Part shown: piece by piece, positions 1-6,508 of the stretch
Layout of the letters: every line of letters starts with the position of its first letter
Numbering within the stretch: position 1 is the stretch's first letter
From: a virus
Lineage: Duplodnaviria > Heunggongvirae > Uroviricota > Caudoviricetes
Reading direction: 5' to 3' (one strand)
Virus record (IMG/VR): IMGVR_UViG_3300014539_000071
Location: 1 to 6,703 of that record
DNA: 6,703 bases
Notes under the pieces: generated by a model
Told to the model about the DNA's origin: nothing
Databases searched by the model: none
Seen by the model: only the letters and a program-made list of their open reading frames with translations
Program-made: the position numbers and the translations under genes

Positions 1-20
1 ATCGCGGTTACTCTGCTAAT
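1..20 (-). CDS. Rz-like i-spanin, N-terminal codons only (gene runs off the left edge of the window)
   Basis: Minus-strand reading of 20..1 gives ATT AGC AGA GTA ACC GCG AT = (I/M)SRVTAI, matching the MSRVTAII start of lambda-type Rz as I recall it. It sits in the expected position overlapping the 3' end of the endolysin. The start codon position is ATT rather than ATG; an in-frame GTG lies at 32..30. Only 6 codons are visible. Confidence 0.3.
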
Positions 21-514
21 TGTTTCCCCCACAAACAGATTTCACGCTCAATCTCACGACGAGTCATGAGACCTTTCCATTGCTTACCGCCAGCATATGT
101 CCAGCGACGTAGCTGATCACATGCGCCTTTGATATCGCCCTGGTTTATTTTGCGAAGAAGCGTCGATGTTCTGAAATTGCCAGCACCCACGTTGTAAACG
201 AATGAGTAAAGAGCGCCGCGCGTTGTTTCCGGTATATCGACTTCGATGTACGGGTTAATTTGTCTGGCGACAGTGGCAAGGTCTTTATTCAAGAGTGCTT
301 TGCATTCTGCTTTGGTATACGTTTTACCGAGCATGATGTCTTTTCCTGTATGCCCGTGACATACAGTCCATACACCAACAATATCTTTGTATGGTATGTA
401 GCTGACACCTTCCAGACCATCGTTACCACTTGGGCCAGTGATTAACACTGATGCTATAGCAATTGCTCCGCCACCAATAGCAGCAGCAACGGCTTTTCGT
501 AATGATGGAGGCAT
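8..514 (-). CDS. rrrD: SAR (signal-anchor-release) endolysin, phage lysozyme of the T4-lysozyme/GH24 type, phage 21 R / DLP12 RrrD-like
   Basis: 168-aa ORF from the track. N-terminal Gly/Ala-rich weakly hydrophobic segment [20 protein letters not shown] typical of a SAR domain. Catalytic E-x8-D-x5-T arrangement in [18 protein letters not shown]. Recognised from memory as near-identical to phage 21 R / E. coli RrrD. Start ATG (514..512) overlaps the holin stop by 1 nt. Confidence 0.93.
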
Positions 515-729
515 TATTCACCTCTCGCAGCCTTGCGCTTATCTTCTTTAATCTTGAAATAAAGGTTTGTCAGGTACGTCAGCAGGCCAAATACCAGGCT
601 ACCCAGCACACCTATTGCTGCCCACTGTGAGGGCGTGACTTTATCGAGCAGCTGTAAAAACCAGTAACCGGCACTACCTGCTGAGGTGCCATAGGCGACA
701 CCCGTTGTTAACTTATCCATGGATTTCAT
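514..729 (-). CDS. essD: Class II pinholin, phage 21 S21-like, with dual-start motif
   Basis: 71-aa ORF. MKSMDK N-terminus gives two in-frame Met starts (Met1 and Met4), the classic holin/antiholin dual start. Two hydrophobic TM segments ([16 protein letters not shown] and [17 protein letters not shown]) and a charged C-terminal tail [13 protein letters not shown]. Recognised from memory as S21/EssD-like. Stop TAA 516..514 overlaps the endolysin ATG. Confidence 0.9.
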
Positions 730-841
730 AACCCCACCTCGCAGACAAAGCGGGTGTAAATTGAGGGAATACTACGAAACGTAACAGACTCGGAGTCAGT
801 GAATAACTCAGGTATTGGGTTATCAGCTAATATCGAGACTC

Positions 842-874
842 AAAAAATGGAAAAACCCGCTCGACGGCGGGTTT
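842..874 (-). terminator. Candidate intrinsic terminator upstream of the lysis cassette (hairpin plus U-tract on the minus strand; weaker on plus)
   Basis: Stem CCCGC (856-860) pairs with GCGGG (867-871), extendable with A/T pairs 853-855/872-874; loop tcgacg. On the minus-strand transcript the hairpin is followed by UUUUUCCAUUUUUU (complement of 855-842). It lies about 115 nt upstream of the holin start. Confidence 0.5.
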
Positions 875-1199
875 AAGCTGTGTGACGAAGTAACCACTCT
901 TAACAGCATAACCAATTTTTTACGTACGTAAACCACAAAATGATATTTGCGAGAATGCTACCGAGTATTGAAAACACCACTACAAATACATAAGCAAATC
1001 TCAACAAATAACCAACAAATAATTTCCAGTGTTATTTTCAGCCGATTTAAATTGAACCTTCAAATTACAGAGCACTTAAATAACAGCCGTTAATATAAAT
1101 TGGCTAATAGATTTATTTTTATTCAGCCAAGAGCCATGAATAGGATTCGATAGAAAAAAGTTCAGATAAAAATAGAGATCTACTTCACAAATCAAACGA

Positions 1200-1300
1200 G
1201 AAACCAAAACTTACATCTTGAAATAATCACATTGATTAGATGAATATTTATCGCGCAGTGACATCATTTTTTAATAATAGTTCAAAAAAAAGGGCTCACG
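1200..1300 (+). promoter_or_regulatory. Porin upstream region containing the porin promoter and 5' UTR (exact elements not resolved)
   Basis: AT-rich 570-bp non-coding region between holin and porin. Candidate -35/-10-like hexamers (TTGAAA around 1219, TAATAAT around 1272) and a weak SD AAGGG about 9 nt before the ATG at 1301. Assignment is tentative. Confidence 0.25.
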
Positions 1301-2398
1301 ATGAAAAAATTAACAGTGGCAATTTCTGCTGTAGCTGCATCAGTACTGATGGCGATGTCTGCTCAGGCAGCTGAAATTTATAATAAAGACAGTAACAAGC
1401 TGGATCTGTACGGGAAAGTTAATGCTAAGCACTACTTCTCCTCTAATGATGCAGATGATGGTGATACTACTTATGCCCGTCTTGGCTTCAAAGGTGAAAC
1501 CCAAATCAACGATCAACTGACTGGTTTCGGTCAGTGGGAATATGAATTCAAAGGCAACCGCGCTGAATCTCAAGGTTCCTCCAAAGACAAAACCCGTCTT
1601 GCATTTGCAGGCCTGAAATTCGGTGACTACGGCTCAATCGATTACGGCCGTAACTACGGTGTAGCATACGACATCGGTGCGTGGACTGACGTTCTGCCAG
1701 AATTCGGTGGCGATACCTGGACCCAAACAGATGTGTTCATGACTGGTCGCACCACTGGTGTTGCAACCTATCGTAACAACGACTTCTTTGGTCTGGTTGA
1801 TGGTCTGAACTTTGCTGCTCAGTACCAAGGCAAAAACGATCGTAGCGATTTCGATAACTACACTGAAGGTAACGGTGATGGCTTCGGTTTCTCTGCTACC
1901 TATGAATACGAAGGATTCGGTATCGGTGCAACTTATGCGAAATCTGATCGTACCGACACTCAAGTTAATGCAGGGAAAGTTCTTCCTGAAGTATTTGCTT
2001 CCGGTAAAAATGCAGAAGTTTGGGCCGCAGGTCTGAAATATGACGCTAACAACATTTACCTGGCCACTACCTATTCTGAAACCCAGAATATGACTGTATT
2101 TGCTGATCACTTCGTTGCTAATAAAGCCCAAAACTTCGAAGCTGTTGCACAATATCAGTTCGATTTCGGTCTGCGTCCGTCCGTTGCTTACCTGCAATCT
2201 AAAGGTAAGGATCTTGGAGTATGGGGCGATCAGGACTTAGTCAAATATGTTGATGTAGGTGCAACCTATTACTTCAACAAAAATATGTCTACTTTCGTTG
2301 ATTACAAAATCAACCTGCTTGACAAAAATGACTTCACTAAAGCACTCGGTGTAAGCACTGATGACATCGTTGCTGTAGGTCTGGTTTACCAGTTCTAA
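1301..2398 (+). CDS. nmpC: Outer-membrane general porin of the OmpC/OmpF/PhoE family, NmpC / phage PA-2 Lc-like, apparently intact
   Basis: 365-aa ORF. N-terminal signal peptide [23 protein letters not shown] with AQA|AE cleavage site. Porin hallmarks: AEIYNKD...LDLYGK start of the mature protein and C-terminal ...VAVGLVYQF ending in Phe. Recognised from memory as NmpC/Lc. Opposite strand to the flanking phage genes (moron-like). Confidence 0.93.
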
Positions 2399-2408
2399 TC
2401 TGATTACG

Positions 2409-2448
2409 AAAAAGATATGTTGCGGGAGGCGTTGCCTCCCCAACATAT
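2409..2448 (-). terminator. Intrinsic terminator acting on minus-strand transcripts coming from the Q side (tR'-like candidate)
   Basis: Long near-perfect hairpin: ATATGTTGCGGGAGGC (2415-2430) pairs with GCCTCCCCAACATAT (2434-2448), about 15 bp with one bulge and loop gtt. On the minus strand it is followed by CUUUUUC (complement of 2414-2408). On the plus strand there is no U-tract after it. Confidence 0.5.
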
Positions 2449-2535
2449 AAGTGGCTCCCTCAAGCCACTTCCTTTAGAAGCACAACCTTGCTTCTAACTA
2501 TATAAACCTTCTGTTATATATTACCCTTTATTTTT

Positions 2536-2570
2536 GGGGGCGTCTCAACGCCCCATTTTTAATAATTTTT
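2536..2570 (+). terminator. Intrinsic terminator for the porin transcript (plus strand)
   Basis: GC stem GGGGGCG (2536-2542) pairs with CGCCCC (2549-2554), loop tctcaa, followed by ATTTTTAATAATTTTT. Located about 140 nt downstream of the porin stop. Confidence 0.55.
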
Positions 2571-2587
2571 AGTAAACAATTGGCATA

Positions 2588-2971
2588 TTAATTAGAGTTA
2601 TTAACAACGATATCCATCTCTAACCGGATATCTAATGCCATTAACATCCCTTCAATTATGCCCTCAGCCTTCTGTAACCTTTTCCCGATATAACCATCAG
2701 AGCAGCAATGCTTACCTGCCAGTGACATGAATGTCATACCGACTACATAATAATCTACTAATAAATCGTGCAAATCGCTGTTGTTCTTTTTCAGACGGGC
2801 CATGCACCCGCAAATGATCATCGCGTCATCGTCACAACATTGCGGGCGAGATTTTACTTTTGAAGTAATTAATCCCTTAAAACCGGCGGCAATGGACGAC
2901 CAGGTCACATCTTCATGATTATTAGCCGCCCACGCTCCCCAACGCTCAAGAACCATCTGAATATCACGCAT
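2588..2971 (-). CDS. quuD: Late-gene antiterminator Q (phage 21/82-type, QuuD-like)
   Basis: Track ORF 2588..2986 (132 aa). I prefer the second in-frame ATG (2971..2969, [11 protein letters not shown]..., 127 aa) because it is preceded by GGAG with 7-nt spacing. Cys-rich motifs [16 protein letters not shown] and GKHCCSDG. Position immediately upstream of the lysis region and downstream of rusA-ylcG matches the DLP12 order. Recognised from memory as QuuD-like. Confidence 0.85.
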
Positions 2972-3056: not shown

Positions 3057-3197
3057 TCATACTCCTGCTCCTGTCAGGGTTTTGGCGTAATTCTTCAGTA
3101 TTCGGTAATCGGTCAAAACAGAACCGGGGAAACGATATAAGCGCAGACGCCCCCAGCGGTGGCGAAGAAGTTCTGCCATATTAAACTCAAACATCAT
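3057..3197 (-). CDS. ylcG: Small conserved prophage ORF YlcG-like (46 aa)
   Basis: Not in the ORF track (too short). Manual translation of the minus strand gives [46 protein letters not shown], stop TGA 3059..3057. Start ATGATG overlaps the rusA stop codon (ATGA overlap at 3197..3194). Matches my memory of E. coli YlcG and its rusA-ylcG-Q position. Confidence 0.7.
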
Positions 3198-3556
3198 TCA
3201 TTCCCCATTTCGGTGATGGTCAGTTCCAGCCTCCCACCTTTGGTAACAGGCATCTTCACAACGCGGTAATCAACGACCTGAGCATCATCCAGCCAGAAAC
3301 CTGCTTTAGTGAGTGCGTCAAAAGCGGCTTTTTGCAGATTATCCAGGTCACGGCGACGGCGATCCGGCATGTGGCACTCAATGCGGATTTTCACAGGCAT
3401 AGCCAGGCCGATATCCAGCATTGCGTTTTTAATGATTCGGGCGACGTTATCGCGGTATGCCTGCCCCTCTGCGCTGATGTGCGTGCGCCCGCGATTATGG
3501 CGGTAATAGCGATTATTGCTCGGAGGCCAGGGTAATGTGATGCTGTAGGTATTCAC
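3194..3556 (-). CDS. rusA: Holliday-junction resolvase RusA (crossover junction endodeoxyribonuclease)
   Basis: 120-aa [21 protein letters not shown]..., recognised from memory as RusA. Start codon is GTG (3556..3554), preceded by a purine-rich SD AGAGGGGG. Acidic residues within RRRRDLDN are consistent with the RusA active site region. Confidence 0.9.
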
Positions 3557-3559
3557 GCC

Positions 3560-3673
3560 TTAATAACCCCCTCTTTCAGCCAGATAGACGGCCTGCTGTG
3601 AAACTTCGCAGGCAGCGCCTAGTTTCTTTTGTGAACCAACGATATTGATCGCTGTTTTGATGGCTGGGTTCAT
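3560..3673 (-). CDS. Short Cro-like HTH ORF (37 aa), possibly a truncated cro
   Basis: Manual translation: MNPAIKTAINIVGSQKKLGAACEVSQQAVYLAERGGY, stop TAA 3562..3560, 3 nt before the rusA GTG. Strong SD GGAGG (complement of 3679-3683) 5 nt upstream of ATG 3673..3671. GSQKKLGAACEVSQQAVY fits a Cro/CI-type helix-turn-helix, but the ORF ends right after the recognition helix, shorter than typical 60-70 aa Cro proteins. Confidence 0.45.
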   Translation of the reverse strand: MNPAIKTAINIVGSQKKLGAACEVSQQAVYLAERGGY

Positions 3674-3700: not shown

Positions 3701-3729
3701 AGATTAAAACTATGGTTGTTTTTAGTCAA
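3701..3729 (-). promoter_or_regulatory. Candidate pR-like sigma-70 promoter driving the Cro-like ORF and rusA-ylcG-Q operon
   Basis: On the minus strand: -35 TTGACT (complement of 3729-3724), exact 17-nt spacer, -10 TAATCT (complement of 3706-3701), then about 25-nt leader to the SD GGAGG and ATG 3673. The -35 and spacer lie inside the palindromic operator at 3712-3736. Confidence 0.45.
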
Positions 3730-3736
3730 CAACCAT
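3712..3736. promoter_or_regulatory. Palindromic operator candidate ATGGTTGTT-N7-AACAACCAT
   Basis: Perfect 9-bp inverted repeat with 7-bp spacer (ATGGTTGTT tttagtc AACAACCAT) centred between the divergent Cro-like and repressor genes. The same half-site (ACAACCA / TGGTTGT) recurs at 3675-3681, 3760-3766 and in a second cluster at 6159-6204. Confidence 0.45.
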
Positions 3737-3742
3737 TTTCGT

Positions 3743-3771
3743 TTGATGAAATAAAACCTTGGTTGTACATT
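3743..3771 (+). promoter_or_regulatory. Candidate pRM-like promoter giving a leaderless repressor mRNA
   Basis: -35 TTGATG (3743-3748), 17-nt spacer, -10 TACATT (3766-3771), placing the transcription start about 7 nt downstream at or near the A of ATG 3778. No Shine-Dalgarno precedes either candidate start (3712 or 3778), as for leaderless lambda cI from pRM. Confidence 0.4.
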
Positions 3772-3777
3772 TGGACT

Positions 3778-4467
3778 ATGAAAACAACACTCTCAGAAAG
3801 ACTTAAAGAAGCCAGATTAGCGCGAGGCCTTACACAAAAGGCGCTTGGGGATTTGGTCGGGGTTAGCCAAGCAGCTATTCAGAAAATCGAAACAGGGAAA
3901 GCTAACCAAACAACTAAAATCGTGGAGATCGCGAACGCTTTGGGTGTGCGCGCAGAATGGTTATCTTCTGGCGTTGGAAATATGTCAGACAGTACAGTGC
4001 AACCAATACAAACAACTGTCAGCCATTCCAAATACTTTAAGATTGACGTTCTTGATATCGAAGTGAGTGCCGGGCCGGGAGTCATCAACCGTGAGTTTGT
4101 AGAAGTTCTACGTTCGGTTGAGTATTCGTTTGACGATGCTCGTCACATGTTCGATGGCAGGAAGGCGGAAAATATCCGTATCATTAACGTACGCGGTGAC
4201 AGCATGTCAGGAACGATCGAACCAGGTGATCTGCTGTTCGTTGATATCACTGTTAAATCTTTCGACGGTGATGGTATCTATGCGTTTCTGTACGACGACA
4301 CAGCCCATGTAAAGCGCCTGCAAATGATGAAGGATAAACTGCTGGTTATCTCTGATAACAAGAGCTACTCACCGTGGGACCCAATCGAGAAAGACGAGAT
4401 GAACCGGGTATTCATCTTCGGGAAAGTCATCGGGAGCATGCCGCAGACGTATAGGAAGCATGGATAA
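3778..4467 (+). CDS. CI/LexA-like repressor: N-terminal XRE-type HTH plus C-terminal S24 autopeptidase domain
   Basis: Track ORF is 3712..4467. I prefer start ATG 3778 (MKTTLSERLKEARLARGLTQKALGDLVGVSQAAIQKIETGK..., 229 aa) because 3712-3777 holds the operator palindrome and pR-like -35. HTH: LTQKALGDLVGVSQAAIQKIETGK. S24 motifs: Ala-Gly candidate cleavage site in VSAGPG (A98-G99 from the 3778 start), nucleophile Ser in RGDSMSG (S142), general-base Lys in HVKRL (K179), with LexA-like Ser-Lys spacing. Confidence 0.85.
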   Translation: MKTTLSERLKEARLARGLTQKALGDLVGVSQAAIQKIETGKANQTTKIVEIANALGVRAEWLSSGVGNMSDSTVQPIQTTVSHSKYFKIDVLDIEVSAGPGVINREFVEVLRSVEYSFDDARHMFDGRKAENIRIINVRGDSMSGTIEPGDLLFVDITVKSFDGDGIYAFLYDDTAHVKRLQMMKDKLLVISDNKSYSPWDPIEKDEMNRVFIFGKVIGSMPQTYRKHG

Positions 4468-4562: not shown

Positions 4563-5288
4563 ATGGAAGAACGTGGGAATTACCTAATAGACCCCCTAGA
4601 AGTAATTGGTTCTGGCGGTTTTGGCCTTGTAGAAAAAATAAGGTTATATAACTCACAAAGAAAAATTTGTGGTCTATATGCCAGAAAAATTTTACGACCT
4701 GATGCAACAGATCCTGAACTCTTTACCAGATTTGAACGAGAAGTAAGATATCAAACTGAATGCCTGCATACTAATATTGTCCAAATATTCATATGCCACT
4801 TACAGAATGCTCAGCCTTGGTTCGTAATGGAACTAGCAGAAACAAATCTTGAAGAAGAAATAAAAAGTGGAACTCTTACAAAGGCTGAAAAAATCTCTAT
4901 TGTAAAAATGGTACTAAATGCCGTCGGATGGATTCATAAGAAAGGATATCTTCATCGGGATATAAAACCACTAAATGTACTAAAATTTAAAGATGGAATT
5001 TATAAGTTATCTGACTTCGGCCTTGCAAAAAATGTGTCACCAGATGCCAATACACAGCTATTAACACAAATTGGCCAATACCCCGCTACTCCTAAATACT
5101 TTGATTACAACGTTTTCCTCAACGGATATTCAAAACAATCAGATATATATTCAATTGGTATTTTAATTGAAGAATTAAATATTGATGGTTTTGATGATAT
5201 AATAAACAAATGTACGCATAGACAACTTAACAAAAGATTCCTGACCGTAGAGCAGATCTTTGAGGAATTGGAGTTGAAACGCTTATGA
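4563..5288 (+). CDS. Compact Hanks-type (eukaryotic-like) Ser/Thr protein kinase, catalytic domain only
   Basis: 241-aa ORF with all core kinase motifs in order: glycine loop GSGGFG, beta3 Lys in YARK, alphaC Glu in FEREV, catalytic loop HRDIKPLN, DFG in SDFGLAK, subdomain IX SDIYSIG. SD AAGGA (4552-4556) 6 nt upstream of the ATG. No extra sensor domain. Low GC by eye relative to the rest of the window. Confidence 0.85.
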   Translation: MEERGNYLIDPLEVIGSGGFGLVEKIRLYNSQRKICGLYARKILRPDATDPELFTRFEREVRYQTECLHTNIVQIFICHLQNAQPWFVMELAETNLEEEIKSGTLTKAEKISIVKMVLNAVGWIHKKGYLHRDIKPLNVLKFKDGIYKLSDFGLAKNVSPDANTQLLTQIGQYPATPKYFDYNVFLNGYSKQSDIYSIGILIEELNIDGFDDIINKCTHRQLNKRFLTVEQIFEELELKRL

Positions 5289-6028
5289 TTAGCATACTCT
5301 CATCATCCATATTTTCTGTACCAAAACATAATGGCAGGGAAAATCAAGATAGCGTGCTTTATCCACTTCAAACACCAAATGGTTATCTTATGGCTATAGC
5401 TGATGGGGTTGGTGGTTATAAAGGAGGAAAAGAAGCATCTGCAGCAGTAATAAATCATTTGTATAGTATTAAAGACAGCTTCACTCATGAAGACAATGTC
5501 TTATCCTTACTTAAGACCCTACAAGAAAAGGTGGCATCTCTTTCGTCAGTTGATAAAGAATTAGCATCTGCTGCTACAACTTTAACAATGTGCCTACTTC
5601 ACAATCAAGGTCTAACAATTATACATGTAGGTGACTGTCGTGTTTATTTAAAAAATGGAAATAAGCTAATCCAATTAACAACAGATCATACTCAACATCA
5701 AATGTTGATAGATAGCGGTATTTATACAGCTCGACAGCTCAAAAATGCAAAAGGTAAAAATATTATTACAACTGCACTTGCTGCCAAGATCCCTCTTCAA
5801 CATCAAGTCATAAATATTGATAAAGATGAACTTCCTCTTGACGATGGTGTTCTATCTCTATTCATCATGTCTGATGGCGCGCATACCTTTTGGGAGCAAC
5901 GCCCACGATTTTCTTACCGTACATTGTCAACCGCATCAAGGTTTGCCTCCAGCCTAATGCGAAGAATAGAGACAAAAGGCCCGACTGACGATTATTCTCT
6001 TATAGCGGTAAATGTAAAGTATTTGTAA
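5285..6028 (+). CDS. PP2C-family (PPM) Ser/Thr protein phosphatase
   Basis: 247-aa ORF. PP2C metal-binding motifs: ENQDS near the N-terminus, DGxGG as ADGVGG, GDSR-like HVGDCRV, LTxDH as LTTDHT, SDG as MSDGAH, and C-terminal DDYSLIAVNV. Start ATG overlaps the kinase stop (ATGA at 5285-5288), implying translational coupling. Confidence 0.8.
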   Translation: MISILSSSIFSVPKHNGRENQDSVLYPLQTPNGYLMAIADGVGGYKGGKEASAAVINHLYSIKDSFTHEDNVLSLLKTLQEKVASLSSVDKELASAATTLTMCLLHNQGLTIIHVGDCRVYLKNGNKLIQLTTDHTQHQMLIDSGIYTARQLKNAKGKNIITTALAAKIPLQHQVINIDKDELPLDDGVLSLFIMSDGAHTFWEQRPRFSYRTLSTASRFASSLMRRIETKGPTDDYSLIAVNVKYL

Positions 6029-6032
6029 ACTT

Positions 6033-6059
6033 CCCGGCCACCGTGCCGGGTTTTCTTTT
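6033..6059 (+). terminator. Intrinsic terminator closing the repressor-kinase-phosphatase operon
   Basis: Stem CCCGGC (6033-6038) pairs with GCCGGG (6045-6050), loop caccgt, followed by TTTTCTTTT (6051-6059), beginning 5 nt after the phosphatase stop. No U-tract on the minus strand, so unidirectional. Confidence 0.7.
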
Positions 6060-6154
6060 ATCCCCTCCCCTCATCACGTATACCGTTCAAAAAACCACCA
6101 CAATCTCCCTTCAGTTATCGCTATGCGATGCAAGTCACAAAATAAATCCATCCT

Positions 6155-6236: not shown

Positions 6237-6508
6237 CATCGCAACAACACAACGATACGGCAACCACCTGATTCACCGTTGCGATGACCGCTTAGATCCG
6301 CAGCTTGAATTTCAGCAGGCTTCGGGAAGTGCGAGGGGTGAAGCGGACGCGTGAACGTCGGTGTGACCAGCTGAAATCAACTCAACACTTCATACCTCAG
6401 TCGCTTCAACGAGGCGGCTTAGTTATGACAACCGGCGGCCATCCACCGCCTGAATACGCGCAGAAGTCTTTATATGTTCAGCAGCCCAGCTTACGGGCAG
6501 GAGTTTTT

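Follow-up and report, generated by a model that had tools for sequence, protein, structure and literature searches.

A porin cassette between the antiterminator gene Q and a probable late promoter in a lambdoid prophage

How does late transcription reach the lysis genes of a prophage when a complete porin gene, facing the other way, lies between them and the gene for the late antiterminator, Q? The question is raised by a 6,703-nucleotide stretch of caudoviral DNA (IMG/VR record IMGVR_UViG_3300014539_000071), referred to in full as 'the window'. According to the original prediction, Q-modified RNA polymerase crosses the whole porin gene antisense, and porin expression and lytic growth exclude one another through transcriptional interference. 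The explanation that we favor, and consider likely, is a different one: the porin belongs to an lc/nmpC–ipeX cassette situated between Q and the late promoter, pR', and late transcription starts at pR', beyond the porin, and never crosses it.

The porin, its neighbors and its own transcript

The window encodes an intact general porin of the Lc/NmpC type (1301–2398, plus strand, 365 aa), evident from its open reading frame, from Pfam, and from its identity to Lc and NmpC. The Pfam search finds Porin_1 (PF00267) along the whole protein (profile positions 1–337 of 337, E 1e-156), and the mature part, residues 24–365, aligns end-to-end with the solved chains of OmpC and OmpK36 (E about 1e-135). 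The protein begins with a cleavable signal peptide (coding positions 1301–1369; the record J02580 marks it in the same sequence) and ends in ...GLVYQF, the terminal residue being aromatic. By profile and alignment, it is a general bacterial porin (PF00267) of the Lc/NmpC subgroup. It is identical to Lc of phage PA-2 at 363 of its 365 residues, the exceptions being R99H and V154F, and identical at 363/365, again, to NmpC of the DLP12 prophage of Escherichia coli K-12, once the latter is rejoined across the IS5 element that interrupts it in codon 346–347. Alignment reveals neither an insertion sequence nor a frameshift within 1301–2398. The original prediction thus stands in these respects: between Q and the lysis cassette there is an intact OmpC-family porin, oriented inversely and at the coordinates proposed, and it is the counterpart of PA-2 lc and DLP12 nmpC, here without IS5. 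In PA-2 and DLP12 the same gene has the same position and orientation, between Q and lysis genes of the S21 type. Other phage-borne porins of the OmpC family—nmpC of P7/P1-like phages (80% identical, for P7) and the ompD-like porins of Salmonella phages (64–65%)—occur in other types of phage and other genomic contexts, outside the gap between Q and pR'. The cassette itself is already known. It is the lc/nmpC gene of lambdoid prophages, a textbook instance of lysogenic conversion, and its intactness here is ordinary.

Q is encoded on the minus strand (2588–2971, 127 aa; PF06530, E 3.5e-53). It is 100% identical to QuuD of K-12, 77–80% identical to the Q proteins of Stx phages, the similarity ceasing after ...LEMD, at residue 120, and 78–81% identical to those of the 933W type. 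Identity to the Q protein of phage 21 is 29%, and the match to the Q21 structures is weak (E 8e-7). By these comparisons, Q is a member of the Q933 type. It closes a series of minus-strand genes (cro', rusA, ylcG, Q) that starts at a cro-like stub beside a cI-like gene; the truncated cro-like gene abuts rusA, and the prophage is defective. The early region nearby (cI-like gene, kinase, PP2C) is different from that of PA-2 and DLP12, and deleted. On the other side of the porin, also on the minus strand, the first late gene encodes an S21-type pinholin (514–729, 71 aa, dual start MKSM; PF04971, 'P21 holin S', E 2e-35), followed by an endolysin, or lysozyme, of the R21/RrrD type (8–514; PF00959, E 3e-45). 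In phage 434B (OL657227), the equivalents of these two proteins are annotated as antiholin/holin class II and 'SAR endolysin'.

Preceding the porin is an AT-rich control region (934–1300, plus strand) with a GC content of about 0.31. This region alone is distinct in composition; the coding part of the gene (0.41–0.50) is like the flanks. In alignments, the region upstream of the porin is near-identical to that of K-12, in which the nmpC promoter, PnmpC, is active and loses its activity when positions -199 to -1 are deleted (PMC11677980). By these deletion data and this near-identity, the porin promoter would lie no more than about 200 bp upstream of the ATG (about 1102–1300, plus strand). The promoter scanner called no hexamers in 1100–1300. 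CRP sites have been proposed for PA-2, and when these features of J02580 are mapped via alignment they fall at about 1172–1192 and 878–898.

Downstream, the 3' UTR (2399–2565, plus strand) is about 167 nt long, and contains four or five stem-loops with an intrinsic terminator at the end. It folds strongly on the plus strand (-65.3 kcal/mol, z -9.6), and at all 189 of 189 intergenic columns 3' of the porin it is identical to PA-2 and to DLP12 of K-12. The ipeX RNA is described as part of the porin transcript, between the porin stop codon and the Rho-independent terminator (PMC12197685), and the length found here fits the 167 nt reported for it. By position, length and identity, 2399–2565 is the known ipeX region. 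The terminator that the original prediction assigned to the porin is present, with a stem at 2537–2554 and a U-run at 2556–2560 (AUUUUU), detected by scanner and by folding (-13.9 kcal/mol, z -3.5). The ipeX 3' UTR did not figure in that prediction. When the whole window was scanned against Rfam at E <= 1 there was no match, so neither ipeX nor the pR' leader is represented by a curated family.

A second hairpin, just past the porin stop codon (2409–2448), can form on both strands. The plus-strand version (-23.3 kcal/mol) forms the first stem-loop of ipeX, and the minus-strand version (-21.3 kcal/mol, z -5.3) runs on into CUUUUU (2413–2409). Our simple scanner missed the minus-strand form (2448–2415) because the stem is bulged, and in 4 of 10 relatives only 4 U remain in the U-run. 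A minus-strand terminator had been proposed here. The hairpin and its U-run do exist; the element is an ipeX stem-loop, with just as good a fold on the plus strand, and may also serve on the minus strand as a stop for read-through from the Q operon. Adding a strong terminator to the spacer between nmpC and quuD had no effect in K-12, and the authors inferred that intrinsic terminators already bar entry from the quuD side (PMC11677980). The number of terminators found in the window (3, vs 2.0 +/- 1.5 in shuffled sequences) does not, as a count, exceed chance; we hold the elements to be real because they are conserved in relatives. These relatives are 96–97% identical in both intergenic regions, the background against which covariation in the hairpins must be read, and the wider pR' set displays shifted bulges and no clean compensatory pairs.

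A probable late promoter on the far side of the porin

On the minus strand, 933–851 matches (77–85% identity, E 5e-9 to 3e-18) a segment that, in more than 300 records of Stx-type phages, lies at the 3' end of Q and is annotated there as 'putative late promoter PR'' or 'Promoter', together with a terminator. Within this segment, homology marks out a candidate pR' (905–933), comprising a -35 hexamer TTTACG (932–927), a 16-nt spacer and a -10 hexamer TATGCT (910–905). Directly after it comes a tR'-type intrinsic terminator (843–874, minus strand), with a stem at 874–853 and a U-rich tail at 852–843 (UUUUUCCAUUUUUU), which both scanner and fold recover (-12 kcal/mol). This hairpin is conserved in all of the pR' homologs and is labelled 'Terminator' in PV189402; no other terminators are seen between pR' and the holin, at 843–730. 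The promoter also includes a 14-bp palindrome, TTTACGTACGTAAA (932–919), the likely Q-binding site, and is followed by a conserved core, TAAGAGTGGTTAC (890–902), that spans the likely start (about A898/G897) and the first transcribed bases. The palindrome, in the -35 and spacer, varies with the type of Q, and here is of the type that accompanies the present Q; core and hairpin are common to all types. In 9 of 10 pR' regions, drawn from three Q types, the core is unchanged, and in the tenth, phi467, it differs at 3 bases. The window has a single copy of the pR' element and of its core, divergent from the porin and about 170 nt upstream of the holin.

The closest experimental reference is E. coli Sakai, in which the start of pR' and the end of tR' have been mapped by dRNA-seq and Term-seq, the 3' end lying 258 nt from the start (PMC7547250). 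In Sakai Sp5 the homologous promoter, TTTACG-16-TATCAT, is called by the scanner and sits 258 nt before the 3' end of the second terminator, in keeping with the mapped pR' and tR'. Register with Sp5 places the start in the window at about 898. The window's own pR' scores 8/12 against the consensus and is not called. Its -10 is weaker than those of the Stx phages. Between 898 and 875 there is no clear -10-like repeat that could be a sigma-dependent pause element, only the core. Positions 933–843 are near-identical in plaque-forming phages (mEp332, PhiR26_1, ev243 and others), and the near-identity of the upstream region to PA-2 and DLP12 extends to the pR' homolog; PA-2 has, in addition, a 16-nt block in the holin leader that is missing here. 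Taken together, 933–905 is probably the pR' cognate to the present Q, an assignment made by homology and register only. The terminator proposed upstream of the holin (842–874) is indeed there; its kinship, however, points to a tR'-type target of Q rather than to an insulator of the moron.

The arrangement resembles that of the Stx phages (933W, Sakai Sp5 and Sp15), whose late cassette gives rise to the small RNA StxS, in its parts—-35 palindrome, -10, start core and first hairpin are all homologous—and by this homology pR' would likewise be constitutive and terminated early. It differs in layout. The Stx-phage promoter overlaps the end of its Q gene, whereas here 1.66 kb of antisense cargo intervenes. 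Downstream of tR' these phages carry their cargo (tRNAs, stx) in the sense orientation, within the late transcript, whereas the cargo here lies outside it. The late leader in the window lacks both the StxS part and a second terminator like theirs at +258. Since the mapped 3' end of the Sakai transcript lies beyond the first hairpin, the tR'-type hairpin may be leaky, even though it is the sole terminator before the holin here. The constitutive, early-terminated pR' transcript (898–843, about 55 nt) might, by analogy, act as a small regulatory RNA like StxS. The logic of lambda, Q–pR'–6S RNA–tR', is the same, in that a Q acting in trans loads near the promoter and reads through a nearby terminator, but lambda Q and the present Q are unrelated, and here pR' does not adjoin the Q gene.

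These features suggest the following course of events. The lc/nmpC lysogenic-conversion cassette would extend from 934 to about 2610—control region, porin, ipeX 3' UTR and terminator—and would have been inserted between Q and its cognate pR'; transcription of the cassette would converge with that of Q and diverge from that of the late operon. In the lysogen, a single transcript from the porin promoter, as established for PA-2 and DLP12, would furnish both the outer-membrane porin and the ipeX tail. ipeX/Lc are reported to lower OmpC and OmpF in DLP12 and PA-2, and the lysogenic conversion anticipated by the original prediction accords with this established role of the family. OmpC is the receptor of PA-2. 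Here, too, the ipeX tail would lower host OmpC and OmpF, altering the cell surface with loss of the OmpC receptor. Late transcription would start at pR' (932–905, start about 898) and, without Q, halt at the hairpin 874–843. Q, made from 2971–2588 and acting in trans at the promoter palindrome, would modify RNA polymerase so that it continues 113 nt further into the holin and endolysin genes. The hairpin at 2448–2409 and the terminator at 2537–2560 would keep the convergent Q and porin transcripts apart. Late transcription of the lysis genes thus probably never has to cross the porin antisense.

Where else might late transcription begin?

In canonical cassettes, Q is directly followed by pR', a pause element and a terminator, and the original prediction is, in effect, that this holds here; pR' would then lie at about 2548–2518 and tR' at 2448–2409, and Q-modified polymerase would cross the porin and the terminator at 874–843 and so cause interference. 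The minus strand between 2540 and 2395 does fold as such an arrangement would, into a structured leader (z -5.4) with a hairpin and U-run, CUUUUU, at its end, and this counts against our model. The region is also 97% conserved in relatives, and contains a -35-like TTGAGA (2548–2543), a -10-like TAATAT (2523–2518) and a second -10-like TATAGT (2502–2497). Conservation and structure are both accounted for by ipeX, however, and the putative tR' has a U-run of only 4 U in four of the ten relatives. We rejected TTGAGA...TAATAT as a promoter: the hexamers are 19 nt apart, the scanner does not call them, TTGAGA is merely the variable loop of the plus-strand terminator, and the segment has no homolog beside Q in any porin-less phage. 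The scanner called no promoter anywhere in 2399–2587, and no pR' homolog occurs there; the homolog, of the cognate type, is 1.66 kb away, at 933–905. The Q-proximal segment, 2399–2600, is found only in porin-carrying phages. We regard a promoter next to Q as improbable. The claim that late transcription traverses the porin is therefore unsupported, and with it the mutual exclusion of porin expression and lytic growth, which rests on that claim. That late transcripts start downstream of the porin and not at Q is, for its part, indicated by comparative evidence only.

There are two further possibilities. Late transcripts might start at about 898 while, upon induction, early rightward transcription coming from the immunity region also passes 2448–2409 and runs antisense over the porin, damping porin and ipeX and adding to transcription of the lysis genes. 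Q does stand at the end of the minus-strand genes that start from the cro-like stub, the U-run of 2448–2409 is short and variable, and a terminator in the sense of Q follows Q in PhiR55_1, but is undetected by the scanner in a locus with a KAP-NTPase gene (L039), which suggests that insulation is not universal. Against this, the hairpin has considerable strength (-21 kcal/mol), the window yielded neither an N-type antiterminator nor a nut site, and the inertness of the added terminator in uninduced K-12 points to little entry from the Q side (PMC11677980). We consider this combination unlikely. Alternatively, the pR' homolog could be a relic, with the lysis genes relying on host-type promoters (e.g. 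sigma-E) and Q irrelevant. The truncated cro-like gene abutting rusA, in a defective prophage, would suit this reading, as would the weaker -10 hexamer and the control by RpoE and Hha described for the DLP12 lysis operon of K-12 (cited in PMC7918800). Yet 933–843 is near-identical in mEp332, PhiR26_1, ev243 and other phages that form plaques, Q is intact and identical to QuuD, and a phage Q-type antiterminator is counted among the factors that control the DLP12 lysis operon (PMC7918800, citing Rueggeberg 2013). We give a relic scarcely any credence.

The gap between Q and pR' as a site for cargo

The 1.86-kb porin block is widespread: of 5426 complete E. coli genomes, 2465 have it, as do 36 phage records, PA-2 and mEp332 among them. 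No single record, whether of a complete E. coli genome or of a phage, contained at least 80% of the window as a whole. The main result, a late promoter probably placed beyond the cargo and not beside Q, is a correction to a very common prophage module, and modelling and annotation of porin, ipeX and lysis-gene expression change accordingly. Pipelines for gene finding and prophage annotation that seek pR' next to Q would miss a displaced one. Cargo in the slot between Q and pR' would be kept out of late transcription, in contrast to stx, which lies inside the late transcript, and this difference in placement may explain why such cargo is expressed from its own promoter instead of being released on induction.

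The cassette has two traits of a moron. It has its own terminator and, judged by near-identity to the active PnmpC of K-12, its own promoter, and in relatives its flanks adjoin: Q runs straight on to pR' in Stx phages and also, among the first 120 IMG/VR matches listed, in 23 of the 99 loci that have a pR' core and an upstream Q. In the same 99 loci among the matches listed, the gap contains the porin in 33 and other cargo in 43, and the longest open reading frame in the gap is antisense in 70 of the 76 that are occupied. Whether the gap between Q and a displaced pR' is a general, under-described hotspot for mostly antisense cargo outside the late unit (porin–ipeX, KAP-NTPase, HNH protein and other defence candidates), with a pR' RNA, encoded in almost half of E. 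coli genomes, that is perhaps StxS-like, is a broader and, for now, rather doubtful proposition that these counts bring into view.

Position of the late promoter

The original prediction placed the late promoter, pR', where lambda has it, beside the gene for the late antiterminator Q (2588-2971, minus strand), such that late transcription would run antisense through the porin gene (1301-2398, plus strand), making porin expression and lytic growth mutually exclusive. Phages without the porin have no counterpart of the Q-proximal segment. The minus strand of 933-851, beyond the porin, has matches in over 300 records of Stx-type phages (77-85% identity; E-values from 5e-9 to 3e-18). In these phages the matched segment overlaps the 3' end of the Q gene, and is annotated as 'putative late promoter PR'' (Shigella phage Ss-VASD) or as 'Promoter' and 'Terminator' (phi345). 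Their Q proteins are 78-81% identical to that of the window, which is itself identical to QuuD, the Q of the K-12 prophage DLP12; phage 21 Q reaches only 29% identity. Similarity to the Stx-phage Q stops after residue 120, and homology restarts at 933; approximately 1.66 kb (934 to about 2610) has thus been inserted between Q and the promoter. The insertion comprises the control region and coding sequence of the porin, together with ipeX, a regulatory RNA region in the porin 3' UTR.

The porin and Q are transcribed towards each other, and the porin and the late operon away from each other; late transcription would not need to cross the porin. With the pR' homolog beyond it, at 933-851, the proposed transcriptional interference is probably wrong: on comparative evidence, late transcripts would start downstream of the porin rather than at Q. 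Early-right transcription is another matter, and could cross the porin antisense after induction. As for a pR' adjacent to Q, the sole -35/-10-like pair there has a 19-nt spacer and no scanner call, and we rejected it.

The homologous promoter of Sakai Sp5 (TTTACG-16-TATCAT) is called by the scanner, and lies exactly 258 nt ahead of the U-run of the second terminator. This is the distance from pR' to tR', the terminator that Q overcomes, mapped in Sakai by dRNA-seq and Term-seq (PMC7547250). By register with Sp5, the elements of the candidate late promoter pR' in the window, all on the minus strand, are a -35 TTTACG (932-927), a -10 TATGCT (910-905), an inferred transcription start at about A898/G897, and a hairpin (874-853) whose U-rich tail reaches 843; the start codon of the holin follows 113 nt later. 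This element occurs once in the window, and its promoter scores 8/12, weaker than consensus. The terminator at 842-874, previously read as a cargo insulator, would instead be the one that Q overcomes, directly after the pR' homolog. In Sakai, the 3' end of the mapped pR' transcript is 258 nt from the start, past the first hairpin (PMC7547250), whereas here no terminator other than the first hairpin precedes the holin, so that some transcription may leak into the lysis genes. The DLP12 lysis genes of K-12 are reported to be expressed at a low level (PMC7918800). In the window, the lysis genes, far left of Q, are an S21-type holin (514-729, minus strand) and an R21/RrrD-type endolysin (8-514, minus strand; annotated 'SAR endolysin' in 434B). 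A 16-nt block (CTGCTTTTTTGCGATA) occurs between terminator and holin start, at about 775, in 6/10 aligned relatives, including PA-2 (alignment A2, columns 527-542); the window, K-12 and two phages lack it.

Ten aligned pR' regions (A5) all share the sequence from -10 to hairpin; the palindrome in the -35/spacer varies with Q type. With QuuD/Q933-type Q (that of 933W/Stx-type phages) it is TTTACG(TA or AT)CGTAAA, and with 1720a-02-type Q it is GCGGTCCGC at the same place. The window palindrome, TTTACGTACGTAAA, is perfect, 14 bp long (919-932, minus strand), overlaps the -35 and spacer, and belongs to the type of the window's own Q; in Stx phages of this type the palindrome is TTTACGATCGTAAA, equally perfect and centred on GATC. 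According to PMC6266700, the Q utilisation site lies in this -35/spacer region. The change of palindrome with Q type at this place points to a candidate Q-type-specific binding site.

The porin and its ipeX flank

The porin was predicted to be intact and of the OmpC family, and is both: the ORF is complete with a full-length Porin_1 match (E 1e-156), and solved OmpC/OmpK36 porins align with the mature part over its whole length. Two of its residues differ from PA-2 Lc (phage), and a different two from K-12 NmpC once that is rejoined across IS5; it contains no IS or frameshift. At ≥80% coverage, the 730-2590 block occurs in 2465/5426 complete E. coli genomes. It is likewise found in 36 phage records, including PA-2 (J02580), mEp332, those of the PhiR and ev series, and a derivative of 434 that acquired the K-12 DLP12 copy together with IS5. 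The order quuD, nmpC::IS5 (opposite strand), essD in K-12 is that of the window. The cassette is an already known element, lc/nmpC, whose ipeX lowers OmpC and OmpF, and its reading as a lysogenic-conversion gene was right.

Porin alleles fall into two classes, about 99-100% and about 91-93% identical (alignment A6). Residues 1-181 are invariant; differences group at 182-190, 219-232, 268-271 and 340-352, probably surface loops. The flanking non-coding DNA is 96-97% conserved, above the coding DNA. This clustering, next to better-kept flanks, points to an exposed face under diversifying selection or subject to loop swapping.

The window shares all 189 nt from porin stop to Q stop with PA-2 and K-12, without a difference; on the plus strand they fold into a chain of stem-loops closing with the porin terminator (-65 kcal/mol; z -9.6). 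IpeX has been described as a 167-nt RNA that belongs to the porin transcript, is made from the promoter of the phage porin, and reduces OmpC and OmpF (PMC12197685, PMC5069750, PMC8065619); the porin 3' flank is the region so described. Rfam has no model for ipeX. All three predicted hairpin or terminator elements lie where expected and fold well; their number, taken alone, is not above chance in the window. That at 2409-2448, predicted to be a minus-strand terminator, is foremost an ipeX stem-loop, since it lies in this flank. It carries CUUUUU on the minus strand, and so may also stop read-through from Q; this U-run is only 4 U in 4/10 relatives. In K-12, a strong terminator added to the nmpC/quuD spacer had no effect, from which the authors inferred that entry from the quuD side is already blocked by intrinsic terminators (PMC11677980).

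A cargo slot between Q and pR'

Scanning IMG/VR for the pR' core gave at least 120 loci. Among the matches listed, 99 have a Q homolog upstream: Q adjoins the core in 23, the porin occupies the gap in 33, and in 43 the gap holds other cargo, which falls into at least 15 classes by length (630-2470 nt). The longest gap ORF is antisense in 70 of these 76 occupied gaps. The space separating Q from the conserved core serves as a slot for variable cargo; PhiR55_1 and phi467 likewise have the order Q, reverse cargo, pR'. Among the occupants are a KAP-NTPase (PADLOC PDC-S20 match, E 1e-177), an HNH protein (PDC-M68A), a PDC-S42 match and an alpha/beta hydrolase (e.g. IMG/VR loci L039:1650-2978:-, L067:1424-2167:- and L036:655-1521:+). 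The PDC-S20, PDC-M68A and PDC-S42 matches are to candidate defence families.

Genes to the right of Q

Upstream of Q on the minus strand are ylcG (3057-3197), rusA (3194-3556) and a truncated, 37-aa cro/YdaS-like stub (MNPAIKTAINIVGSQKKLGAACEVSQQAVYLAERGGY; 3563-3673). The stub stops 6 nt short of rusA; replication and nin genes have therefore been deleted, and the prophage is defective. In it, rusA, ylcG and Q would be fed almost directly by the cI-controlled early promoter. To the right, on the plus strand, are a cI-like S24/HTH gene (3712-4467), a Ser/Thr kinase (4563-5288) and a PP2C phosphatase (5285-6028), the last two overlapping by 4 nt. This pair occupies the place of rexAB in lambda and stk in 933W, and is therefore likely a lysogen-expressed abortive-infection pair. 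The kinase matches PADLOC families mad6, PD-T4-6 and Stk2 (E down to 5e-39). The S24 gene of related E. coli prophages is followed by a DUF7946 gene, not a kinase. A terminator-like hairpin (CCCGGCCACCGTGCCGGG, then a U-run; 6029-6060) lies 3' of the PP2C gene, followed by approximately 450 nt without a convincing ORF (including 6290-6430), and an ORF that leaves the right end of the window.
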